A DNA stretch of 64,000 nucleotides from Octopus sinensis. Taxonomy: Eukaryota. The number at the start of each line of letters is the position of its first letter. Position 1 is the stretch's first letter. The stretch covers positions 131,936,001-132,000,000 of the forward strand of contig NC_042998.1 of assembly GCF_006345805.1 (NCBI RefSeq), written 5' to 3'. This document shows positions 10,865-63,474 of the stretch, piece after piece. The notes under the pieces were generated by a model. It searched no databases and was not told where the DNA came from. It worked only from the letters and a program-made list of their open reading frames with translations. The translations under genes and the position numbers were made by a program.

Positions 10865-12331
10865 TAGTACTGGTTTTTGCAGTCATTAACGTACGTTTGT
10901 CATTCAATTTGATAATCGAGTCATTCAAAAATCGTGAAAAAAATTAGCGCCATGAAGTTAATCATTCAAATTTGTTTTTCAATCATTCAATTTCGCATTT
11001 CGGTCAAAGAATTTAGCACTTGCATCATTCAAATTAAAATGCCCGTCGAGAGCATTCAAATTAGTCGGAATGTGAAGAAGCGTCTTTTCGATCATTCAAA
11101 TTCACACGTGAGCATTCGAGTTCGAATAAGTTTATTCAATTTAGCACTAATTTTACATGTGCGTTTTTATTCACATTCTAAGAAGTGAATGTTAAAAATG
11201 ACCAATTTAAATGACATGTTTTGTCATGCAAATTTTATTGTTGTTGTAACTACAAGGAAGAAATAAATTGCGTGCTTCTTTTATCCACGAAAGTGTTTTT
11301 TTTTTTATTGCAACGTTCATAACCGGTCGGTATCAATTGCATTTTATTCGTCTTTCTCTTAGACCAATTTGTAATCATGGAGCCACGCGTAAGGTACATG
11401 CGTATATCAGACGAATATAGGACAAGGCTGATTGATGCCTTAGAGAGACATCACACCGATTACCTGCAACTGGCAGACACACTTGGCATTAAAAGGAGTA
11501 GTGCTCGATCAATAGTAGCCACCTACCTACGGTCTGGGAGGCGCCACAAGTTTCCCATGACCATGGAAGAATGGCAAGCACATCTCATATAACAGGTCGC
11601 GTAACATCGACGCGCTCACTCCAGGAACTAGACGCCTCGACCGCCAGGAACTAGACGGGTAAATCCTCTCAAACGAATTCTCCTTATTAAGACTGTAAAT
11701 CAATTATTATCTTAGTGTACATAGCACTCTTCTTCCGATGAAAGAGAAAATGCAAAATCAAAGATATATATACTCTTCCCAACAAGACATATCCAAAGGA
11801 AGAATACATAGCACAACATAACGTATTCAAAATCGAGGAAAATGAGCATTTGTTGCAATTGTGAATTTCTTTTAAAATGATTGAAAAGTCTGGAAATGCG
11901 ATTTTATGAAATCTTTGACAATAAATACATGCACCTATGCAAAATAAAAGAATACATAGAAAAGACATTGGCACGATAGAGTGCTTAAAGCATAAACAAT
12001 GGATGAAAATCCATAACTATAATAACAATGACCATGAGATAAAACCAAAACAGCTATCGTGCTAATTTGATTACTGTTAAATATATTGCTCCGAAACGAA
12101 GCTCGAAAAGAAGCTTCCTCGCATTCCGACTAATTTGAATGCTCTCGACAGGCATTTTGATTTGAATGATGTAAATGCTAAATTCTTTGACCGAAGTGCG
12201 AAACTGAATGATCGAAAAACGAATTTAAACGACTAACTTCATGGCACTAATTTTTTTTTTCGCGACTCTGAATGACCCGATTATCAAATTCAATGACACG
12301 CGTAATAAAATGACTGCTAAAACCTTTACTA
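10865..12331 (+). mobile_element. Internally deleted Tc1/IS630-like DNA transposon with long (>220 bp) TIRs
   Basis: 10865-11090 and 12100-12331 are reverse complements, with internal TCATTCAA subrepeats; TA at the right end; encloses an HTH-like ORF. Confidence 0.8.
11377..11592 (+). pseudogene. Truncated transposase N-terminal helix-turn-helix ORF (71 aa)
   Basis: MEPRVRYMRISDEYRTRLIDAL...YLQLADTLGIKRSSARSIVATYLRSGR fits a Tc1/IS630-type HTH; no catalytic domain follows. Confidence 0.65.
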
Positions 12332-14131: not shown

Positions 14132-14400
14132 TGAATTATTAAAGCAGGTGTTTTACATTTGAAAGACTGGTATCATCTTATTCTTCTTCGTTTCGTCTTG
14201 TTTCACATTAACCAAGAAAGCGTGAAATTAAAGTAACACATACATCTCGATCAGGTAGAGTAAGTAATCTAATAAGCTTTAGCATAGCTGTAAGACGTGG
14301 CCTAAAACATGACACAGAGATCTGTATATGTATGTATGTATGCATGCATGTATGTATGTATGTATGTATGTATGTATGTATGTATGTATGTATGTATGTA

Positions 14401-14695
14401 TGTTGCTGGCAAGGGGTCAGTGACGAAGGGCCAAAGTGCACACGTGGTGCACTGACAGGGTATGTGTAGGCCACCATCCATTTCTAAAACTTATAAACTT
14501 AAGGTATTTAGTGACACGCGATGTCAGTGATAGCAAGTCGGAGAATATTTATATGTAAGGTCTAGTTTAGCATATAATATACAAGTGGGACATGAGTACA
14601 TGTGGAAATGAATGAAAACTTGCCATTATAAACAGAGGTTTTAGGTCCCTATTGTAGGTTTATGCATTCATACATACACACACACATATATATAC

Positions 14696-14743
<48 letters not shown>

Positions 14744-14898
14744 TATTGAACCAAATCCAGAGGCTAGCCTTTTCCAATACGTTAAAATACTGTGATAGGT
14801 TATGGCATGTAGTTTAACCCGAAACAACACTTTCTACGTATTCAACAATCGGGCAACATTGGGTTCCTCAGTTAATTTTAGTATGTGTGTGTGTGAGC

Positions 14899-14985
<87 letters not shown>

Positions 14986-15289
14986 ATGTGTGTATTTTTT
15001 CGGTATATTTCGTCTGACGAAATGATCTGTAACTGATTTTATTGGTCAATAACTTTTTTCTGTATTTTGTTCATTTAAACTGCGTATATGTAGCATTACC
15101 CAAGAGACCGTGTCTATACTGATACTTCTTATGCTGCCTTATTTGAAGGATGCAAATCAGTTTGATTCGTCCTTTTTGTAGAATTCCAGCATGAATAATA
15201 TGTACTCGTATATAGACATCTGTATACTTACATATTTATTTTCATCTTTCTATGTATTCAGATATGACTGAATGTACGAGTATAGATCA

Positions 15290-15373
<84 letters not shown>

Positions 15374-15403
15374 AAATGTGTGTGAATACATATATGTACA
15401 TAT

Positions 15404-15442
<39 letters not shown>

Positions 15443-15538
15443 AAATGTATTTATGTATATATATTTCTGTGGCATACATATATTTATATGTGTGTGTGTA
15501 TACATATGTATTCGTATGTGTATTTATATATATTAATG

Positions 15539-15594
<56 letters not shown>

Positions 15595-16118
15595 TACATA
15601 TATATGTATTAGAATGTGTGTATATATATGTATATATGTGCGTGTGTGTATACATATACACATATACATGCACTTGTGTGTATGCGTGCGTGTGTTTGTG
15701 TTTATGCATGCATGCATGTATGTATGTATACATATGTATGTACATATTATGTATGTATGTATGTATGTATGTAGTATGTATGTATGTATGTATGTATGTA
15801 TGTATGTTGCTGGCAAGGGGTCAGTGACGAAGGGCCAAAGTGCACACGTGGTGCACTGACAGGGTATGTGTAGGCCACCATCCATTTCTAAAACTTATAA
15901 ACTTAAGGTATTTAGTGACACGCGATGTCAGTGATAGCAAGTCGGAGAATATTTATATGTAAGGTCTAGTTTAGCATATAATATACAAGTGGGACATGAG
16001 TACATGTGGAAATGAATGAAAACTTGCCATTATAAACAGAGGTTTTAGGTCCCTATTGTAGGTTTATGCATTCATACATACACACACACATATATATACG
16101 TATATATATATATATTAT

Positions 16119-16149
<31 letters not shown>

Positions 16150-16304
16150 TGAACCAAATCCAGAGGCTAGCCTTTTCCAATACGTTAAAATACTGTGATA
16201 GGTTATGGCATGTAGTTTAACCCGAAACAACACTTTCTACGTATTCAACAATCGGGCAACATTGGGTTCCTCAGTTAATTTTAGTATGTGTGTGTGTGAG
16301 CGAT

Positions 16305-16397
<93 letters not shown>

Positions 16398-16719
16398 ATG
16401 TGTGTATTTTTTCGGTATATTTCGTCTGACGAAATGATCTGTAACTGATTTTATTGGTCAATAACTTTTTTCTGTATTTTGTTCATTTAAACTGCGTATA
16501 TGTAGCATTACCCAAGAGACCGTGTCTATACTGATACTTCTTATGCTGCCTTATTTGAAGGATGCAAATCAGTTTGATTCGTCCTTTTTGTAGAATTCCA
16601 GCATGAATAATATGTACTCGTATATAGACATCTGTATACTTACATATTTATTTTCATCTTTCTATGTATTCAGATATGACTGAATGTACGAGTATAGATC
16701 AAAAGATAGATAGATAGAT

Positions 16720-16783
<64 letters not shown>

Positions 16784-16804
16784 AAATGTGTGTGAATACA
16801 TATA

Positions 16805-16851
<47 letters not shown>

Positions 16852-16953
16852 AAATGTATTTATGTATATATATTTCTGTGGGCATACATATATTTATATG
16901 TGTGTGTGTATACATATGTATTCGTATGTGTATTTATATATATTAATGTATGT

Positions 16954-17004
<51 letters not shown>

Positions 17005-17197
17005 AGTACATATATATGTATTAGAATGGTGTATATATATGTATATATGTGCGTGTGTGTATACATATACACATATACATGCACTTGTGTGTATGCGTGC
17101 GTGTGTTTGTGTTTATGCATGCATGCATGTATGTATGTATACATATGTATGTACATATTATGTATGTATGTATGTATGTATGTATGTATGTATGTAT
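14401..17197. repeat. Tandem duplication of a ~1.4-kb unit (14401-15804, 15805-17197)
   Basis: tgttgctggcaaggggtcagtgacg recurs at an offset of 1404; unique parts appear identical and differences lie mainly in microsatellites; breakpoints are in (TATG)n. Confidence 0.95.
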
Positions 17198-17745
17198 GAT
17201 GGAAAAAGAAACAGTGAACTAATGATGGAGTGCGAGATACACTTAAACAAGGTTAGAAAAAAGAGAAATGGGTACGAATGAAAAGAAACAAGCAAACGAA
17301 AAAGAAGAGAGAGAGGAAGGGCGAGAGAGAGAGTGAGAGAGAGGAAGGGCGAGAGAGAGAGTGAGAGAGAGTGAAACTATTTTTACGAGTTTTACATAAC
17401 AGATAAAAAATGGCAAAAGAATCTGAATGATTTTTGAATACTTCCATCTGTGTTGGTGGCCGTTTGTCATTTGATCCTGTTATCTCATCTGTTGAAGGCG
17501 GAATTAATATCACGGATGTGTTTCGTTGGTGGCGGGAGATGAGTTGCGGTGTAATGACGAGAGTGCTTAAGGTGGGCTTGGTGGTATTGGTGCTAGTGGT
17601 GGTGTTGGTGGCGGTAATATGTACTATAGAATTAGATGTCATGATGGCAATATAATATGCAGGGTTGATTTGTGGGCAAGTAAGAGAAACGTTGGAAGAG
17701 GATAGATAGATAGATACATACATACATAGATAGATAGATAGATAC

Positions 17746-18933: not shown

Positions 18934-19352
18934 AAGGTAGCGAGCTGGCAGAAACGTTAGCACGCTGGGCGAAATGCTTAGCGGTATTTCGTATGCCGTT
19001 ACGTTCTGAGTTCAAATTCCGCCGAGGTCGACTTTGCCTTTCATCCTTTCGAGGTCGATAAATTAAGTACCAGTTACGCAGTGGGGTCGATGTAATCGAC
19101 TCAATCCGTTTGTTTGTCCTTGTTTGTCCTCTCTGTGTTTAGCCCCTTGTGGGTAGTAAAGAAATAGGTATTTCATCTGCCTTTATGTTCTGAGTTCAAA
19201 TTCCGCCGAGGTCAACTTTGCCTTTCATCGTTTCGGGGTCGATAAATTAAGTACCAGTTACGCACTGGGGTCGATATAATCGACTTAACCCGTTTGTCTG
19301 TCCTTGTTTGTCCTCTCTGTGTTTAGCCCCTTGTGAGTAGTAAAAAAAAATA
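18934..19352 (+). mobile_element. Dimeric SINE family A, young copy
   Basis: Head with A-box/B-box-like motifs, then a second headless unit; perfect 15-bp TSD ggtacaaagataccg (18919-18933 / 19353-19367). Confidence 0.95.
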
Positions 19353-19520
19353 GGTACAAAGATACCGTTCTTTGAAATATACCAAATCGACAATGATCGG
19401 AAGTGACTATGGTGGTAGAAGTAGATGTTGCTAATGTCTTCGTTCCTCGTTTAGAGGTCGAACATTCTTATTTTACACCTCCATATCTCCCTTTGACTCA
19501 CATTACCACACTATATTTTA

Positions 19521-21630: not shown

Positions 21631-21854
21631 ATTTTCTTTATTTTTCCCAAGTGCAGTACCATCCTTCATGTTCGATATCTATCGTACATCGAAAATAAAT
21701 AAATAAATAAAAATAAGGGTTTTAGGATAAAAAAACAGAAAACCGATACGCTCGCGTTGCCCCACAAATTTCATTTTAATAATTTAAACAAGCGAATGTT
21801 TTATTTAACCATTTAAAGTGTGTTGTGGAGTATCCAGTAACCACAACTATTATT

Positions 21855-22252
21855 CTTTTCTACTCTAGGCAAAAGGCCCGAAATTTGGGGGGAAAGGACC
21901 AGTCGATTAGACCGACCCCAGTACGGAACTGGTACTTAATTTATCGACACCGAAAGGATGAAAGGTAAAGTCGACTTCTGCGGAATTTGAGCACATAATG
22001 TAAAAACAGACAAAATACCTATTTCTTTACTACCCACAAGGGACTAAACACAGAGAGTACAAACAGGGACAGACAGACGGATTAAGCCGATTGTATCGAC
22101 CCCAGTGCGTAACTGGTACTTAATTTATTGACCCCGAAAAGATGAAAAGCAAAGTCAATCTCGGCGGAATTTGAACTCAGAACGCAACGGCGGACGAAAT
22201 ACCGCTAAGCATTTCGCCCGGCGTCTTAACAATTCTGCCAGCTCGCCTCTTT
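21855..22252 (-). mobile_element. Dimeric SINE family A
   Basis: Two family A bodies on the minus strand; diverged TSD aaccacaactattatt / aagcacgaccattatt. Confidence 0.9.
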
Positions 22253-22280
22253 AAGCACGACCATTATTAACTGACAATAA

Positions 22281-22494
22281 AGCGGTGAGGTGGAAGAATC
22301 GTTAGCATGCCGGGTAAAATGCTTAGCAGCATTTCGTCCGTCTTTACGTCCTGAGTTCAAAATCCGCCAGGGTCGACTTTACCTTTCATCCATTCGGGGT
22401 CGATAAAATAAGTACCAATTGAACAGAGCGGTCGATGTAATTGACTAGCACCTTCCCCCAAAACATTTCAGACTTTGTATCTATAGAAGAAAGG

Positions 22495-22550
<56 letters not shown>

Positions 22551-22655
22551 GGTGGTGAGCAGGAAGAAATGTTAGCACCTCAGGCAAAATGCTTAGGGGT
22601 ATTTCGCCCGTCGCTACGTTCTGAGTTCAAATTCCACCGGGGTCGACTTTGCTTT
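22281..22655 (+). mobile_element. SINE family A copy with (ATT)n tail plus a second partial copy (22549-22655)
   Basis: gcggtgaggtggaagaatcgttagcatgccgggtaaaatgcttagc...; second head at 22549. Confidence 0.9.
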
Positions 22656-22673
22656 TCCTCCACATTGTTATGT

Positions 22674-24653: not shown

Positions 24654-25240
24654 AGGCCCAGGCGTAGCCGTGGAGTTAAGAAGTTCGTTTTTCAACCACG
24701 TGGTTTTAGGTTTAGCTCCACAGCGCGGCGCATTGAGTAAGTGTCTCTCACTATAATTCCGGCCCGACCAATGCCTTGACAGTGAATTTCATAGGTGGAA
24801 ACTCTATGGAAGCTTGTCATACATACATACATACATACATACATACATACATACACATGTATGTATGTATGTATGGATGGATGGATGGATGGATGGATGG
24901 ATAGATGGATAGATGGATGGATGCATGTATGTATGTATACATACAGATATACACACACACATGTATGTATGTATGTATGTATGCATGCATGTATGTATGT
25001 ATGTAGGTAGGTAGGCAGGTAGGTAGGTAGGTAGGTAGGTAGGTCTTTGTGTTTGTATTTGTCCCTTCCCACACCACTGTTGGTATGTTTGCGTCCCTTT
25101 AACTTTACGGTTCAATAACAGAGGCTGGATGAATAAGTAGCAGATTCAAAATAAGTCATGGGATCGATTTGTTCGGCTAAACTCTACAAACCAGTACCCA
25201 ACAAAGGCCATCATCCAATGAATGAAACAAGTAAGATATT
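24654..25240 (+). mobile_element. SINE family C with expanded internal microsatellite
   Basis: Head aggcccaggcgtagccgtggagttaagaag...; 3' half tttgtccc...cggttc...gaataagta...tgaaacaagtaa. Confidence 0.8.
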
Positions 25241-25634
25241 CTTTTCTAATCTAGGCACAAGGCCCGTAAATTTTGGGGAGGAGGCCAGTCGATTCGATCG
25301 ACCCCAGTACGCAACTTGTACTTATCGACCCTGTAAGGATGAAAGGTAAAGTCGACCTCGGCGCAATTTGAACTCAGAACGTAAGGACAGACGAAATACC
25401 CATTTCTTGACTACCCACACGGGGCTAAACACAGAGGGGACAAACAAGGACCGACAAACGGATTAAGTCGATTACATCGACTCCAGTGCGAAACTGGTAC
25501 TTATTTAATCGATCCCGAAAGGATGAAAAGCAAAGTCGGCCTCGGCGGAATTTGAACTCAGAACGTAGCGGCAGACGAAATACCACTAAGCATTTCGCCC
25601 GACGTGCTAACGTTTCTGCCAGCTCTCCGCCTTA
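25241..25634 (-). mobile_element. Dimeric SINE family A inserted in the tail of SINE C
   Basis: Perfect 16-bp TSD aaacaagtaagatatt (25225-25240 / 25635-25650). Confidence 0.95.
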
Positions 25635-26089
25635 AAACAAGTAAGATATTAAAATAAACTCGGTCTTCTGCATGTAGCAATAGTTTTTTAACGATTAGTT
25701 TCTACATAATACTTTGTTGTGATATTATCTCATTATTATGTTGCCATACCATTGCTATTTAATGGACTGTTTGTTGGTTATTTGGACTGTTTGTTTATTT
25801 CTTTATTACATCCGGTTTCAGTAGGTCGTCGTTATTTCCCAACTAATCACAAAACTAGTGCGCTCTATATTAACAAGTGTGCCTGAAATGTGTGCAACAC
25901 TTCCCACACGAGCTGCCGTTTGAGAGTACAGTCCCCATTTATATGCGTTGCTGCGCAGAGAATAGCGCTCATTTACGTACGATGTTGCCCGAAATATTGA
26001 CCATGTTGTTTGTAAACTCTCATTCTCTCACCTACATGCGGTCACAAGCAGAACATGCCTTTGTATTCACGGAATGACCGAATATGGCC

Positions 26090-29461: not shown

Positions 29462-29590
29462 TATATATAAAGAAACAATCATGTTACGAACTTCATAACT
29501 CTCTATTCCTTTGTCATTCCAATTTCTCACTGCCGAGGTGTACTTGACTCACGTTTCGTTATGAAGCATATATATATATATTATATATAT

Positions 29591-29649
29591 ATAGTCTAAC
29601 TACCAGATTATTACCATAGCAATGCCTAAACCACACACACACACATCGG

Positions 29650-29687
<38 letters not shown>

Positions 29688-29745
29688 AACTACCAGATTA
29701 TTACCATAGCAATGCCTAAACCACACACACACACATCGGAATTAT
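29591..29745. repeat. Short tandem duplication (90-bp period) bounded by (TA)n
   Basis: atagtctaactaccagattattaccatagcaatgcctaaacc occurs at 29591 and 29681. Confidence 0.9.
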
Positions 29746-29763
29746 ATATATATATATATATAT

Positions 29764-30568
29764 ATTAGTCAATTTAGGGTAGCAAAAAAATTCAATAGAA
29801 ATTTATCGCTACCAGCGGCCTGATGGAAAAGAGAAAATAGTCATCGACTAAATATATAAATATAACAATTTAGGAGTGACCCCAACAGGTCACTCGTCCA
29901 CCAGAAAGAGCAGCCATAACTCACACCGCCAAGTAGTAGTAATTCAGAAATTAGGTGAAAATTTAAAAAACATTTACCCTAATTCATCTTTTAGACGTTG
30001 CAACGTTTCTGTGTCATTAATGATTAAATTAGCTTAATTAAATTAAATTAAGCCAATCTACCATAGGTTACACTTCATCAGTAAAAGACCTGGGAGAGAC
30101 AAATATACACGAGGCGTCTGTATCGATGCCTACGGGATATCTGACTTAAAATTTTCAAGACTGACGTATTCGCGCCAAACTTATCAACAGTAAATATAAA
30201 CTGCCGATTCAATCTCAGAATTATTCAGAAAATTATCAATTAGTCAATTTAGGGTAGCAAAAAAATTCAATAGAAATTTATCGCTACCAGCGGCCTGATG
30301 GAAAAGAGAAAATAGTCATCGACTAAATATATAAATATAACAATTTAGGAGTGACCCCAACAGGTCACTCGTCCACCAGAAAGAGCAGCCATAACTCACA
30401 CCGCCAAGTAGTAGTAATTCAGAAATTAGGTGAAAATTTAAAAAACATTTATTAGGGTAAATGTTTTTTAAATTTTCACCTAATTTCTGAATTACTACTA
30501 CTTGGCGGTGTGAGTTATGGCTGCTCTTTCTGGTGGACGAGTGACCTGTTGGGGTCACTCCTAAATTG

Positions 30569-30574
<6 letters not shown>
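29764..30574 (-). mobile_element. Non-coding Penelope-like/retrozyme-like element: 475-bp unit, partial direct copy and inverted copy
   Basis: 29764-29976 is repeated at 30239-30451; 30451-30574 is the reverse complement of 29860-29983; (TA)n on both sides; contains a hammerhead. Confidence 0.85.
29987..30088 (-). ncRNA. Type I hammerhead ribozyme, canonical core, GUC site
   Basis: Minus strand TCTTTTA-CTGATGA-a-GTGT...long stem II...ACAC-a-GAAA-CGTTGCAACG-TC-TAAAAGA; perfect 7-bp stem I and palindromic stem III ACGTTGCAACGT. Confidence 0.9.
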
Positions 30575-30649
<75 letters not shown>

Positions 30650-31067
30650 CTGTCTTAGTATGCATGTATCTATTTAAATATGATGTGTGTATACGTGCAC
30701 ACCCATCCGCACGAATTCAAACACTTCCCATGTCATCATCACATGTATGGGGGTGAAATAAAGGCAGGAAATGGATGGTTTCTTTTGAATGCCGTCAGTG
30801 TCTCCAGACGAGGAAAGCGCCCGAGTGACGGGAGAGAAAGGCTCCAAATTCTTTCAGATATTGTCATACGTTGAATATAAGCTGTTATTATTAAAACATA
30901 TATTTGCAGATTCACAGATTACACAACAGTGATAAAGCAACAACATGTAACAATATAATGCATATTTTAGATACAAAAATACATAAACAAGCATTGCTGA
31001 ATAAAAAACACAGCTATTTTACATATGAATAAATAGCTTAGGAGCTAGTGAGTTTATGAATGTAAAC

Positions 31068-31487
31068 AGGCGTAGGAGTGGCTGTGTGGTAAGTAGATTG
31101 CTTACGAAACACATGGTTCTGGGTTCAGTCCCACTGCGTGGCACCTTGGGCAAGTGTCTTCTACTATAGCCTCGGGCCGACCAAAGCCTTGTGAATGGAT
31201 TTGGTAGACGGAAACTGAAAGAAGCCCGTCGTATATATGTATATATATGTGTATGTGTGTGTATATGTTTGTGTGTCTGTGTGTTTGTGTGTCTGTGTTT
31301 GTTCACCCAACATCTTTGACAACCGATGGTGGTGTGTTTACGTCCCTGTAACTTAGCGGTTCGGCAAAAAGAGACCGATAGAATAAGTACTAGGCTTACA
31401 AAGAAGAGGTCGATTTGCTCGACTAAAGGCGGTGCTCCAGCATGACCGCAATCAAATGATTGAAACAAGTAAAAGAATAAAAGAATA
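31068..31487 (+). mobile_element. tRNA-derived SINE family C, full length
   Basis: aggcgtaggagtggctgtgtggtaag...gggttcagtccc head, internal (TA/TG)n, tail gaaacaagtaaaagaataaaagaata. Confidence 0.95.
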
Positions 31488-31559
31488 CACGCACACACAC
31501 AAACACAACTGCCTTGGAGATCAGAAGTTGATTCCATTTAGTTCATTTATGTTCTAAAT

Positions 31560-43462: not shown

Positions 43463-44703
43463 TGTTCTTTATTAGCCACACAGGGCTGCACACAGATAGA
43501 ACAAATTACAAGGTAGAGCTTTTCTTTTGAAGGTTTAAAAAAAATAAAATAAAAAATAAAAAAAATAAAAAATAAGAAAAAAATAAATAAAATAAAAAAT
43601 AAAATAAAAAAGGGGGGGTTGATCAAAAGGGATCGTAAAGGAGAGAAAGAGGACAAAAAAAAAAGGGGGGTTAAAAAAAGGGGGAGAGGAAAAAAATTGA
43701 TCAATAGGGATCGTTATCACAGAAATGTCAATATGAAGTGTAAAGGGGGGGGACAGGTGAGGTTTACCCGTGGAAAGAAAAGCCTACGGAAAAGACCACG
43801 GTAACCTCGGTCAATGAAGTCACATGTTATATTTCTTTTTTTTTTTTTTTTTTGCAAATAAGCAACTCTCTGTATTAATTTTTACGGTTCATAGAATCAT
43901 AGTCAAGGTGGCTTCGTCATTCATACGTGCCATTCTTGCTACATTCACCCATCTTTTTTTAAAACATTCACTAGACAAAACTTGCCTCTCTACTCTCACT
44001 TTTTTCTTCAAGTGATACTTGAAGAAGTGATGAGAGATTGACCAGAGAGGAAAGTGTTTGTCTCTAATCCTTTCAGACGCGTCCACCAGATACATTCTTT
44101 CGCCATAGCCACAAGTATGATAAAAATAGCTCTTCCTTCCCGTTTGAAGGAAGGAGCGTGACGATATTAACGATAGACTCGGCTGATAAACCGACACGTC
44201 CCACACGTGACAGCAGTCGTTCGACATAAGCCCACAGTGGGAAATTGCTGGACACTGCACGATTGCGTGCAGAGCGGTTTCGTCGCTCTGCCCGCATCTC
44301 GGGCAGTCGGCGGCCCCGTGTTTCTCGAGCCATGCCTATAGAGCTTATCCCGAACGGGTAGCGCTTCTCGGTAGCACCGCCAGGCCAGGGATCTCTGGAA
44401 GTTGTCCATAGGTCCGGGCCGAAAGTCGTTTGAAAACGGCGGTCAGGTATTCCTCGTCGACGCCCAGGTTTGCCCAGAGCTCGTCGTCGTACCTCCCCTC
44501 CACTAATCCCCTATAGAATGCTTTGTTGTGTTGAAGTCACTCAAGGTCGACCGGGACGGCAGAGTTGCTTGAGAGCAACGCGACACTCGCGGTGCCATTC
44601 GCCCTTCTTCGGCCTCTTTTTGATCCACGACTGTAGTTCGGTCATGGAGACGAGTTGCGGGAATGCGTGCCTCACAAACGGCGACCACACCTGTTCACCG
44701 TCA
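43463..44703 (-). mobile_element. 5'-truncated L1/Tx1-clade LINE (C-terminal zinc knuckle plus 3' UTR)
   Basis: Minus strand MDNFQRSLAWRCYREALPVRDKLYRHG / CPRCGQSDETALHAIVQC / LWAYVERLLS with frameshifts; AATAAA near the 3' end; (GATA)n on both flanks. Confidence 0.85.
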
Positions 44704-45430: not shown

Positions 45431-46117
45431 AGGCAGACACGGGTGCTTAGTTAAGAATCTCGCTTTGCAACCGCGTGGTTTCGGGTTCAGTTCTACTGCG
45501 CAGCACTTTAGGCAAATGTCTTGTATTATAGACCCAGGTCGATCAATGTTTTGTGGCTGAATTTTGGCAGACGGAAACCGCGTGGAAGCCCTGTGTGGTA
45601 AGTAGCTTGCTTACGAACCACATGGCTCCGGGTTCAGTCCCACTGCGTTACACCTTGGGCAAGTGTCTTCTACTATAGCCTCGGGCTAACCTAAGCCTTG
45701 TGAGTGGACTTGGTAGACGGAAACTGAAAGCCCGTCGTGTGTGTATATATATATATTATATATATATATATAATATATATGTGTGTGTGTATATATATAT
45801 GTGTGTATATATATGTATATATATATATATATTTATATGTATATATATATAATATTTGTATGTGTGTATGTGTGTGTATATGTTTGTGTGTCTGTGTTTG
45901 TCCCCCCAAAATCGCTTGATAACCGATGCTGTGTGTCTACATCCCCGTAACTTAGCGGTTCGGCAAAAGAAACCGATAGAATAAGTACTAGGCTTACAAA
46001 GAATAAGTCCTGGGGTCGATTTGCTCGACTAAAAGGCGGTGCTCCAGCATCACTACAGTGGAATGACTGACTGAAAGAGGTAAAAGAGTAAAAGAATATG
46101 TCTGTGTGTTGTGCGTG

Positions 46118-46148
<31 letters not shown>

Positions 46149-46453
46149 ATATATATATGTGTGTATATATGTATATATATATATTATTTATATGTATATA
46201 TATATATATTTGTATGTATGTATGTGTGTGTATATGTTTGTGTGTCTGTGTTTGTCCCCCCAAAATCGCTTGATAACCGATGCTGGTGTGTCTACATCCC
46301 CGTAACTTAGCGGTTCGGCAAAAGAAACCGATAGAATAAGTACTAGGCTTACAAAGAATAAGTCCTGGGGTCGATTTGCTCGACTAAAAGGCGGTGCTCC
46401 AGCATCACTACAGTGAAATGACTGACTGAAAGAGGTAAAAGAGTAAAAGAATA
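45431..46453 (+). mobile_element. Composite SINE family C (two heads, duplicated 3' half)
   Basis: Old head at 45431, younger head at 45591; 3' half repeated at a period of about 360 bp (45880-46098, 46235-46453). Confidence 0.9.
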
Positions 46454-46490
46454 TGTCTGTGTGTGTGTGCGTGTATATATATATATATAC

Positions 46491-46521
<31 letters not shown>

Positions 46522-46789
46522 TGTATGTATGTATGTATGTATGTATGCAACTATTACAGAATACTGTTGGTAGTTTATACTCTAGCTTCCTCTCTTTTCC
46601 TAATGCTTCTTCCAATTTGGCTCTACTTCGTATACTCCTTTTTTTTCTTTTTCTTGCTTTTGCCATTCTTTGCGGTCACTCGCAGTCTTCTCTCATGCAG
46701 TCGCAATCTGGTAACCCACTTCATTGAAATGTGGTGTCATGACATTCTTATATCAGTTCCGGGTGCCTCCTTCTTCGACGGCTTTCACA

Positions 46790-52309: not shown

Positions 52310-52904
52310 ACAATTCATAAATGAGGGCAAAGGAAAAAATTTCTAATGCCAAATATGCCGAAAAATTGGACATATTGTCCATTAACCATATAATTTTTTC
52401 ACAATACGCACGCTACTCGAAGAAAGGTCGACAGAAATTTCTAAAAACTTCCATTATTACCATATCGGACCGATTTCAGAGTTAGCTACTAAGAGCCCTC
52501 TCTTCGGCAGTGATACATGTGGCAAAAGAAATAAATGAGATACTTACTCATACCCATGGATATGAGTAAGTATCTCATTTATTTCTTTTGCCACATGTAT
52601 CACTGCCGAAGAGAGGGCTCTTAGTAGCTAACTCTGAAATCGGTCCGATATGGTAATAATGGAAGTTTTTAGAAATTTCTGTCGACCTTTCTTCGAGTAG
52701 CGTGCGTATTGTGAAAAAATTATATGGTTAATGGACAATATGTCCAATTTTTCGGCATATTTGGCATTAGAAATTTTTTCCTTTGCCCTCATTTATGAAT
52801 TGTTTATAAATTTAACCGTTAAAGGTATTTTTTAATATGCTGGCCATTGATAAAATTTTTTTCGAGAAAATATTTTTTTCCGAAAAGAATTTTATCCTCA
52901 CATT

Positions 52905-52907
<3 letters not shown>
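52310..52907. mobile_element. Penelope-like element forming a 494-bp near-perfect palindrome (52310-52803) with decayed hammerheads
   Basis: 247-bp arms centred on CCA|TGG (52556/52557); core CCGAAGA...GAAA-TCGGTCCGA-TA at 52606-52650 and its mirror; homologous to 1801-2328; (TA)n flanks. Confidence 0.9.
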
Positions 52908-59638: not shown

Positions 59639-60889
59639 CTCATATATATATATATTTCACAATACGATTTGTAGAGGCAATAAGTTATCACTTCTTTTAA
59701 ACGAAGTGTATTACAAAATAGAAAGAAAATGGTGAATCTCCATTCCTCGAATTTCTCTCAAGAAAATTTACGAAACTGATATTTGCTTTTCTCTGTAAAA
59801 TTCTAACAAGTTGCTTTCTTCACAATACAAAATGGACCATGTCTATGTATCTACGTATCTATCACTGTTTCTATTTCGGTATCTCAGCTTATACAAGTGT
59901 AACTTACAAAAATCACGAGCCATGTCCACTTCAATTTCCTCCATTCAGCCATTTCTGAAAATATTGTAGAATGATTATTTTCTTACAGACAATTTTTAAA
60001 ATTCACTTTATCATCGAGCAGTTTATCCTAAATAAAGAACATGTAATTTCATAAAGCTAAGCAAGCGATGCAACGGCAGCGTTCTAACACGTTTTCTACC
60101 TCAATCTCTCGATTTCACAATAGGAAATTACACGTAATCAATTATATATTGCGTTGAGTAGTGTTGGGGCTCCACCAGATGGGATTTTTATCAATTTTTT
60201 TTTTCTGTGTCAACTTTTATTTTATCTTATTTCATTTTATTTACCTGAATGGATGGATGGATGGATAGACAGGCAAGTGGGTTTTCTGATCCTAAGTAAC
60301 CACACTCATATCCCGCAGCTCATATCTCGATCACTCACTCACCCGCTGCCCTAGATCTGCAAAGAGTAAACAGTCACGTTAGATAATCTCTTGCTGTTCA
60401 GTTTTGCCCAGAAAGCTGTGCATTGTATTACTTTACAGCTTTTGAGGTGAGTAACTAAAATTTTCTTTTAGAGCTGGACGAGTTCGTAAATGATTTTGTC
60501 ACCTGACACAAGAGTGTCACAACAATCTAGAAATTTTCGATGACTAATTGGAACCATCTATGACTTTAATCCATAGAAAAAAAATCGGCTCACTGGGAAC
60601 ACGAAATTAATTGATTTGTAAGGGATCAGCTTAAATTGAATGTTCAGGTAGTTACAGTACAGCCAACCGTCACTGGTGAGAGAGTAATACTTGGTAACAA
60701 GTACCATGCATTCGCTTATTATTATGACTGCTTGTGTAATCAAAAGCAGACGTAGACATCCACTCGGCTTCGTCACCCTTGACGCAGTTGCTGGAGGTTT
60801 AACTCTGTTGGCATCAGCTTGGCATTCATTTTCAGTGGAGTATTCTGTGACTGATACGAATTATAAGAGATATGAAAAAATATGTAATC

Positions 60890-61360
60890 AGGTGCAGGAG
60901 CGGCTGAGTGGTAAGAAATTTGTTCTCCAACCACATAGTTCTGGGTTCAGTCCCACTACGTAGCACTTTGGGCGAGTGTCTTCTACTATAGCCCCGGGGT
61001 GCAAAAGCCTTGTGCGCGGATTTGATTGACGGAAAGTGAAAGAAAACCACCGTAAACATGTGTGTATGTATGTATACATGTATTGTACATGTATGCATGA
61101 GTGTATGTGTGTGTGCGCGCGTGTGAGTATCAATGTGTGTGTGTCTTTGTGTTTGTTCCCCACCACAGCTTGACAAACGGTGTTGGTTTCTTTACGTCGC
61201 TTTAACTTAGCGGTTCTGATAAAGATACGTTAGAACAAGTAAGTACCATGCTTTAAAATAAATAAGACCTGGGAATAATTTTCTGGCTAAAAACCCTTCA
61301 AGACTGTGCCCCAACATGGCCACATTCCAATGGCTAATACGAGCAAAAGATAAAAGATAT
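60890..61360 (+). mobile_element. SINE family C
   Basis: aggtgcaggagcggctgagtggtaag...gggttcagtcccact head; tail aaaagataaaagat. Confidence 0.9.
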
Positions 61361-62892: not shown

Positions 62893-63089
62893 TATATATA
62901 TATATATATAATATATATATATATGAATACATGTACACATACATATATATCTATACATCTATATTATAATTAAGTACAAATACATTGATATAAATTCATT
63001 AACAATGCTAAATAATGCAATATAAATACATATATATATATATATTATATATATATATATATATACATTCAAATATACATTCATATATG

Positions 63090-63474
63090 TATTCTTTTTT
63101 TAATTCTTTTATTCGTTTCAGTCATTTAACTGCGGCCATTCTGGAGCATGGCTGCAGACGAAGAAATCGACCCCAGGACTTATTCTTTGTTTGCTTGGTA
63201 CTTATTCTATCTGTTTCTTTTGCCGTACCACTAGGTTACGGAACGTAAACATGCCAACATCGGTTGTCAAGCGATGGTGGGAAGACAGATACAGAAACAT
63301 ATATATATATATATATATATATACGATGGGCTTCTTTCGGTTTCAGTCTTCCAAATCCACTAATAAGGACCGAGAATATAGAAGCCACTTCCCCAAGATG
63401 CCACGCAGTGGGATTGAACCCAAAATCATGTAGGTGGGAAGCAAGCTTCTTACCACACAGCCACACTTGCACCT
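63090..63474 (-). mobile_element. SINE family C
   Basis: Reverse complement of 31068-31487-type sequence, head ending ccacacagccacacttgcacct. Confidence 0.9.

Follow-up and report, generated by a model that had tools for sequence, protein, structure and literature searches.

The insertion at positions 29764–30574 on the minus strand of the window, by which we mean the whole 64-kb stretch of Octopus sinensis DNA that was analysed, comprises one full 475-nt unit with a hammerhead ribozyme motif, a partial tandem copy and an inverted 3′ piece, all flanked by (TA)n. Our preferred reading, held tentatively and at a little under an even chance, is that of a multi-copy non-coding hammerhead repeat pasted into (TA)n by a borrowed Penelope reverse transcriptase/endonuclease from a linear, longer-than-unit RNA, the 5′ end of which was likely made by ribozyme cleavage. 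From its sequence organisation, the element probably derives from Penelope, is non-autonomous and belongs with the non-LTR retrozymes, and for the narrower claim that the template RNA's 5′ end was produced by the hammerhead, the chances appear about even.

The unit spans 29764–30238 (34.5% G+C) and runs head to tail through a joint from 30238 back to 29764. Read as a circle, its longest stop-free frames comprise 48 codons in the sense and 61 codons in the antisense direction. The adjacent pseudo-LTR-like partial copy (30239–30451, minus strand) is identical to 29764–29976 at 213 of 213 positions, an exact direct repeat with a spacing of 475. The inverted copy (30451–30574, plus strand) is the exact reverse complement of 29860–29983 over 124 of 124 nt. 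The direct copy begins at the position corresponding to 29976, which lies 17 nt beyond the predicted cleavage site, and the inverted copy 10 nt beyond that site, as the initial annotation had recorded from the 475-nt period and its partial copies. Its two positions are right, but since the copies meet at one shared base, 30451, they represent the two sides of a single junction and not independent events. A 96-nt tail (29764–29859, minus strand), which ends in a predicted hairpin, is present on the direct end and missing from the inverted arm. The latter stops at an internal AT-rich stretch joined to (TA)n, where 12 of 13 positions match (TA)n. The target tracts lie at 29743–29765 on the left, with the last two bases common to the element, and at 30570–30645 on the right, with the first five in common, and because (TA)n is found on both flanks, no target duplication can be read. 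The insertion was also held to be recent on account of its identical copies, and we found 0 differences across 337 duplicated positions, which corresponds to an upper 95% age of 0.4–4.5 million years at an assumed 1e-8 to 1e-9 substitutions per site per year. Next to the element, between adjoining (TA)n tracts, an exact 70-nt direct repeat with a spacing of 90 occupies 29582–29741, with no further copy in the window; it may be a slippage duplication or the short ends of another (TA)n-targeting element. A donor-like site at 29977 lies one base away from where the direct partial copy begins. An intron between this site and an acceptor-like site at 29821 (minus strand), proposed by eye, was rejected, with no spliced joint among the joints listed in public contigs.

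The type I hammerhead motif occupies 29987–30088 on the minus strand and was assigned from its core, three stems, a shuffle test and family variants. The core boxes CUGAUGA (30075–30081) and GAAA (30006–30009) and the GUC triplet (29996–29994) were read from the sequence, and the predicted cleavage site, between 29994 and 29993 immediately after GUC, follows from its position within the motif. CUGANGA, GAAA and NUH thus occur in order together with three stems, of which stem I is open, as in type I. Stem I pairs 30088–30082 with 29993–29987 through seven Watson–Crick pairs, and one G-U pair can extend the helix. Stem II (30010–30074) has a base of four pairs (30073–30070 with 30011–30014) topped by an AU-rich 19-pair hairpin and flanked by an A on each side, at 30074 and 30010, so that the base reads either as an A/A closure or as a G-C pair with an extra A on either side. 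Stem III (29995–30006) is a perfect 12-nt palindrome that forms four pairs and a 4-nt loop as a monomer and, as modelled, could pair between two copies. These coordinates reproduce the core, the 7-bp stem I, the palindromic stem III and the 29994/29993 cut of the earlier description on the minus strand. The A/A closure, which had been called unusual, is present, but it is the family's majority state rather than a peculiarity of this copy: it accounts for 87–100% of the depth in three DNA-like runs of public contigs, in which a minor variant at 30010 that makes an A-U pair accounts for 0–13%.

A descriptor combining core and stems, drawn up after the motif had been seen, found a match in one of 20,000 dinucleotide-shuffled units and in one of 200 shuffled versions of the whole window, as against two real matches in the window. 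The Rfam search gave no match at gathering score and no hammerhead model among 34 weak matches at E ≤ 10, the best of which came from miRNA models, lay in the inverted repeat and stayed under the gathering threshold; the long insert in stem II may explain the missing match. A scan of metagenomes with the motif yielded no match. A 22-base scan yielded two metagenome, no viral and two prokaryote matches, all four of which matched those 22 bases only and were set aside as chance. The active ribozyme fold lies above the best predicted fold by 0.7 kcal/mol for the isolated motif and by 3.6 kcal/mol for the whole unit, where nucleotides immediately 3′ of the cut are able to pair with the region around it and so weaken the fold. 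The latter deficit would fit a ribozyme that is often left uncut.

Part of the unit was found in 20 of 24 listed sequencing runs, from 10 studies and six organisms; none of the 24 is on record as RNA. Four runs from three organisms, not all independent in that the best-matching one may be the source of the window, were compared with the single unit. They contained 1376, 808, 561 and 30 matching contigs, which covered all 30 bins and were mostly less than 99% alike to the unit, so that, judged from these matches, the unit belongs to a diverged multi-copy family. The run with 30 contigs (X11) was guessed to be RNA and was not counted as evidence of expression. The joint from 30238 back to 29764 was the sole joint listed in all four runs (9, 5, 3 and 2 contigs), and several contigs carried different letters across it. 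Recurrence with diverged letters makes the 475-nt period a property of the family and not a one-off template jump. This bears on a very improbable alternative, in which there is no 475-nt unit and template jumps joined three 3′ ends, each truncated independently, that derive from a long autonomous Penelope. Most Penelope insertions are indeed 5′-truncated (PMC8557442; bioRxiv 10.64898/2026.07.22.740005), and contigs that extend beyond 30238 were listed without their letters, but the recurrence of the joint in four of four runs, three organisms and diverged versions, together with a unit that has no reading frame over 61 codons, largely refutes that origin.

Among the 40 substitutions shown of 68, 11 fall within the motif. 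None of the 40 hits an invariant core base, which by itself is weak evidence. The five single changes at paired motif positions all keep the pair (chance 0.18–0.44 each, depending on transition bias), and two motif substitutions fall where the model leaves bases unpaired. The changes at 29998 and 30003 break a stem III pair when taken singly but jointly restore both the pair and the palindrome, and they occur together on one X11 contig, as deduced from contig depth and distances. One variant converts GUC to GUA, which is likewise a cleavable triplet. The loose end of a contig in a further run (X5) was read as a diverged subfamily with the free seventh core position changed and the following A kept. 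The stems are thus kept across copies among the 40 of 68 substitutions shown, and these variants support a hammerhead under structural selection.

The same variants weigh on the possibility, again very slight, that the structure arose in assembly or is a repeat at the DNA level, such as a satellite or fold-back element, and that the hammerhead is a passive relic. Perfect copy identity could come from assembly, structures of this kind trouble assemblers (PMC8557442), and the inversion junction of the locus is absent from the joints listed in the four runs. However, single-copy junctions fall below the 3% listing threshold, which hides them in a joint table that was not built to show them; the family variants are compensatory and wobble-compatible; and the tail-and-inversion geometry is repeated at two other (TA)n loci in a different sequence family (see below).

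Contig ends offered some view of other insertions. Loose ends lie before 29852 in three X11 contigs, with a consensus ending in short (TA)n, which suggests, from the contig sequences, that the internal AT-rich end of the inverted arm recurs in the family. Two loose ends near 29852 in another run (X8) are AT-rich and possibly a diverged tail, and one X8 contig joins its 5′-side end to (TA)n at 30040. At 29976–29993, no pile-up was seen among the 24 of 144 loose ends shown, in a table whose 3% threshold hides single-copy junctions. The (TA)n joint at 30040 and the missing pile-up count against a cut-made 5′ end. Contig ends near 29986–29993 were rejected as evidence, given that variants at 29994 and in stem I would break contigs anyway. 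Summed contig depth was 1.27–1.62 times higher 3′ than 5′ of the cut in the three DNA-like runs, and this asymmetry was not used because depth does not measure copy number and differs 5- to 23-fold between bins.

Dimer-cleaving hammerheads of Penelope elements are reportedly the topic of an earlier paper. Typical Penelope insertions have a pair of direct repeats, with an inverted one next to them, and a tail confined to one end (PMC3846280; PMC8557442). Non-LTR retrozymes are defined by type I hammerheads that lie in short, non-coding units in tandem (PMC7229834), and a 2026 preprint derives them from Penelope pseudo-LTRs (bioRxiv 10.64898/2026.07.22.740005). The 475-nt unit carries no open reading frame with a reverse transcriptase (RT) and a GIY-YIG endonuclease, and is therefore not an autonomous Penelope. 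Its partial tandem copy, comparable to pseudo-LTRs, the adjacent inverted 5′ copy and the insertion into microsatellite DNA, with (TA)n on both sides, are the marks of a non-autonomous one. It is at the same time a short, non-coding, low-GC head-to-tail unit with a type I hammerhead, as in non-LTR retrozymes. Mobilisation of the Penelope type, which the initial annotation had put forward, accordingly agrees with the layout; no partner RT gene was found within the 64-kb window, in which four of 44 long frames were scanned against Pfam and gave no match.

With non-LTR retrozymes, as described in the available sections of PMC7229834 and bioRxiv 10.64898/2026.07.22.740005, the element shares the type I hammerhead, the short low-GC non-coding head-to-tail unit and the many copies, and Penelope enzymes, proposed as the movers of those elements, are proposed here as well. 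At 475 nt, the unit exceeds the 150–450 nt given for retrozymes (PMC7229834) and lies within the preprint's range of 51–972. Unlike them, the locus is a 1.45-mer with one ribozyme, so it does not hold the two or more consecutive units with a whole hammerhead by which the preprint recognises active copies. Its stem II is far longer than the retrozymes' usual four pairs with a small loop, and an inverted arm and tail, Penelope marks both, were not found described for retrozymes in the sections available. With Penelope-like elements that carry an endonuclease (EN+; PMC3846280; PMC8557442), it has in common the direct pseudo-LTR-like repeats with an inverted one, the one-sided tail, the microsatellite target and the lack of a discernible target duplication, although the (TA)n flanks would hide any here. 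It differs from them in having no RT/GIY-YIG gene, in a tail of 96 rather than 30–40 nt and in a hammerhead that lies outside the duplicated 213 nt instead of within the pseudo-LTR. As in Penelope-associated hammerheads (PMC4209133), there is an extra base between positions 9 and 10.1, a G10.1-C11.1 pair, a long helix II and a palindromic helix III able to pair between copies. In contrast, helix III has four pairs as against 0–2 in most metazoan forms, and the second extra A before GAAA and a helix I of 7–8 pairs are unlike the hammerheads of that description. Finally, Chlamys elements such as MRC1 (PMC8557442) are, by description only, likewise derived from Penelope, short and non-autonomous, with pseudo-LTRs and copies arranged head to tail, whereas most of them have no canonical hammerheads, according to the text available, and are found in green algae.

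The window contains a second hammerhead family that shares the geometry of the 475-nt element on (TA)n and is unrelated to it in sequence; kinship between the two was rejected, as 71 of 500 shuffles scored as well. One copy (1797–2332) has an intact-looking type I motif on the plus strand, with its core at 2143–2149, the cut at 2190/2191 and an AUA triplet. It has an inverted 3′ arm with a tail of ~90 nt at 1797–1916, a rearranged junction near 1917–1990 and (TA)n on both sides, and the inverted arm ends about 107 nt downstream of the cut. A relative about 72% alike (52310–52906) forms a palindrome with 247-bp arms and one mismatch, centred at 52556/52557, and a 103-nt tail on one arm. At the centre of this palindrome, 94 nt upstream of the cut, lies a palindrome of 6 nt; the core is changed at position 4, and stem III differs from that of the copy with its core at 2143 by a compensatory pair. 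A one-sided tail of ~90–103 nt, for which a hairpin close to the 3′ end is predicted, is common to all three insertions (29764–29859, 52804–52906 and 1797–1885) and exceeds the published 30–40 nt.

For the 475-nt element, the simplest template would be a linear RNA of ~705 nt that extends from the upstream cut as far as the tail and retains an uncut inner ribozyme. In this scheme, a tandem donor locus would be transcribed, the upstream hammerhead would cut and the downstream one would stay uncut. Both target strands would be nicked within (TA)n, and cDNA would be primed at 29764, the tail end, and at 29860, in the AT-rich site inside the unit. The first cDNA would cross the uncut ribozyme into the upstream partial unit, both cDNAs would run out near the 5′ end of the RNA, and they would then be joined head to head through one shared base, with a loss of 10–17 nt. 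Parts of this scheme have parallels in the anole Penelope protein, which nicks both strands of AT-rich DNA in vitro and starts reverse transcription at two internal sites bounding the tail (PMC11167929). A junction placed 10–17 nt from the cut has an estimated chance of about 4% if positions are uniform over 475 nt. Furthermore, the only 12-nt palindrome of the unit lies just beyond the cut and the junction is not placed there; this natural fold-back site went unused, which was counted in favour of a cut-made end. On the other side, the evidence comprises one junction only, and an identical cut site 475 nt downstream was crossed intact. The earlier proposal that the template had a ribozyme-generated 5′ end is consequently not established, resting as it does on that single junction, with the cut site crossed intact and the junctions of the second family elsewhere.

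It is quite possible, if somewhat less probable than the cut linear template, that the same non-autonomous Penelope-type element was copied from an uncut multimer or read-through RNA, in which case the junction would reflect stalling, self-priming or chance. Junctions of the second family lie away from the cut, one of them exactly on a 6-nt palindrome, and Penelope inverted junctions often sit on palindromes, from which self-priming has been inferred in rotifers (PMC3846280). The junction of the 475-nt element is found at the 3′ foot of stem I and adjoins a near-palindrome at 29974–29982 in the unit; this near-palindrome or the ribozyme stems could stop the enzyme without cleavage. The anole element inserts in vitro without a need for cleavage, and in the text available no reads begin or end at the cut (PMC11167929). 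Eight of nine predicted retrozyme dimers did not cleave (bioRxiv 10.64898/2026.07.22.740005), and the A/A closure of stem II may lower cleavage, as a U-U mismatch at this place in axolotl goes with weak activity (PMC7229834). Against an uncut template stand the palindrome left unused and the fact that the enzyme passed the same structure once. The conserved stems, too, show selection for the fold of the ribozyme, but not for its use in this step.

A template consisting of a 475-nt circle, formed by double cleavage and ligation and then reverse transcribed by rolling circle into a 1.45-mer, as in the retrozyme model, is improbable. It would accommodate a layout that exceeds unit length and is circularly permuted, and circles have been demonstrated for retrozymes of coral, mussel and axolotl (PMC7229834) and put forward for Penelopes (PMC4209133). 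However, a circular RNA lacks a 5′ end at the cut. The two inferences of the initial annotation, a cut-made 5′ end and a circular template, thus cannot describe the same template, and with a circle the position of the junction would become a coincidence. In addition, with a single hammerhead the locus itself could not release a cut-to-cut monomer or circle, and no locus with two hammerheads was seen among contigs that were too short to show one.

Elsewhere in the window, a tandem duplication of about 1.4 kb (14326–17198), 98% identical and microsatellite-rich, is either real or an assembly haplotype duplicate. An inverted pair of about 230 nt (10865–11091 and 12103–12331), 86% alike and 1 kb apart, possibly represents the ends of a DNA element. 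Many dispersed repeats of 100–400 nt occur within 2577–47171 (e.g. 18934–19356, 21848–22661 and 25213–25637), with others at 31060–31489, 45591–46538, 60882–61292 and 62975–63464. They belong to at least two families, some arranged as tandem or inverted pairs, and look to us SINE-like. A 148-codon frame at 43889–44335 (minus strand) had no Pfam match and by eye resembles what we take to be the zinc-finger end of a non-LTR retrotransposon protein.

A search of the open literature, with subscription journals, Repbase/Dfam and supplements outside its scope, found no prior description of the 475-nt family or of junctions mapped relative to the cut. The element probably represents a new family within a known class and not a new kind of element; its tail and stem II are longer than those in the descriptions. 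An octopus repeat annotation counts 31 recently active Penelope-like families, and its main text, as available, does not use the words ribozyme or hammerhead (PMC13282606). The locus links retrozyme-type units to Penelope insertion marks directly, whereas the 2026 preprint argued from co-occurrence and trees (bioRxiv 10.64898/2026.07.22.740005). A short, young and very abundant non-autonomous family leaves many near-complete insertions, so that the spread of 5′ junctions around the cut provides a cheap, genome-only test of a cut-RNA template and also bears on linear versus circular templates. The role of hammerheads in Penelope elements has been called unclear (PMC8557442). The broader proposition that insertions of a high-copy retrozyme family record the hammerhead cut as the 5′ end of the RNA copied by Penelope, with only some units cutting, is on present evidence doubtful. 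If true, it would constitute in vivo evidence for a role of Penelope hammerheads and structural evidence that retrozymes use Penelope enzymes from linear rather than circular templates, with a two-site priming tail of ~100 nt used on (TA)n.
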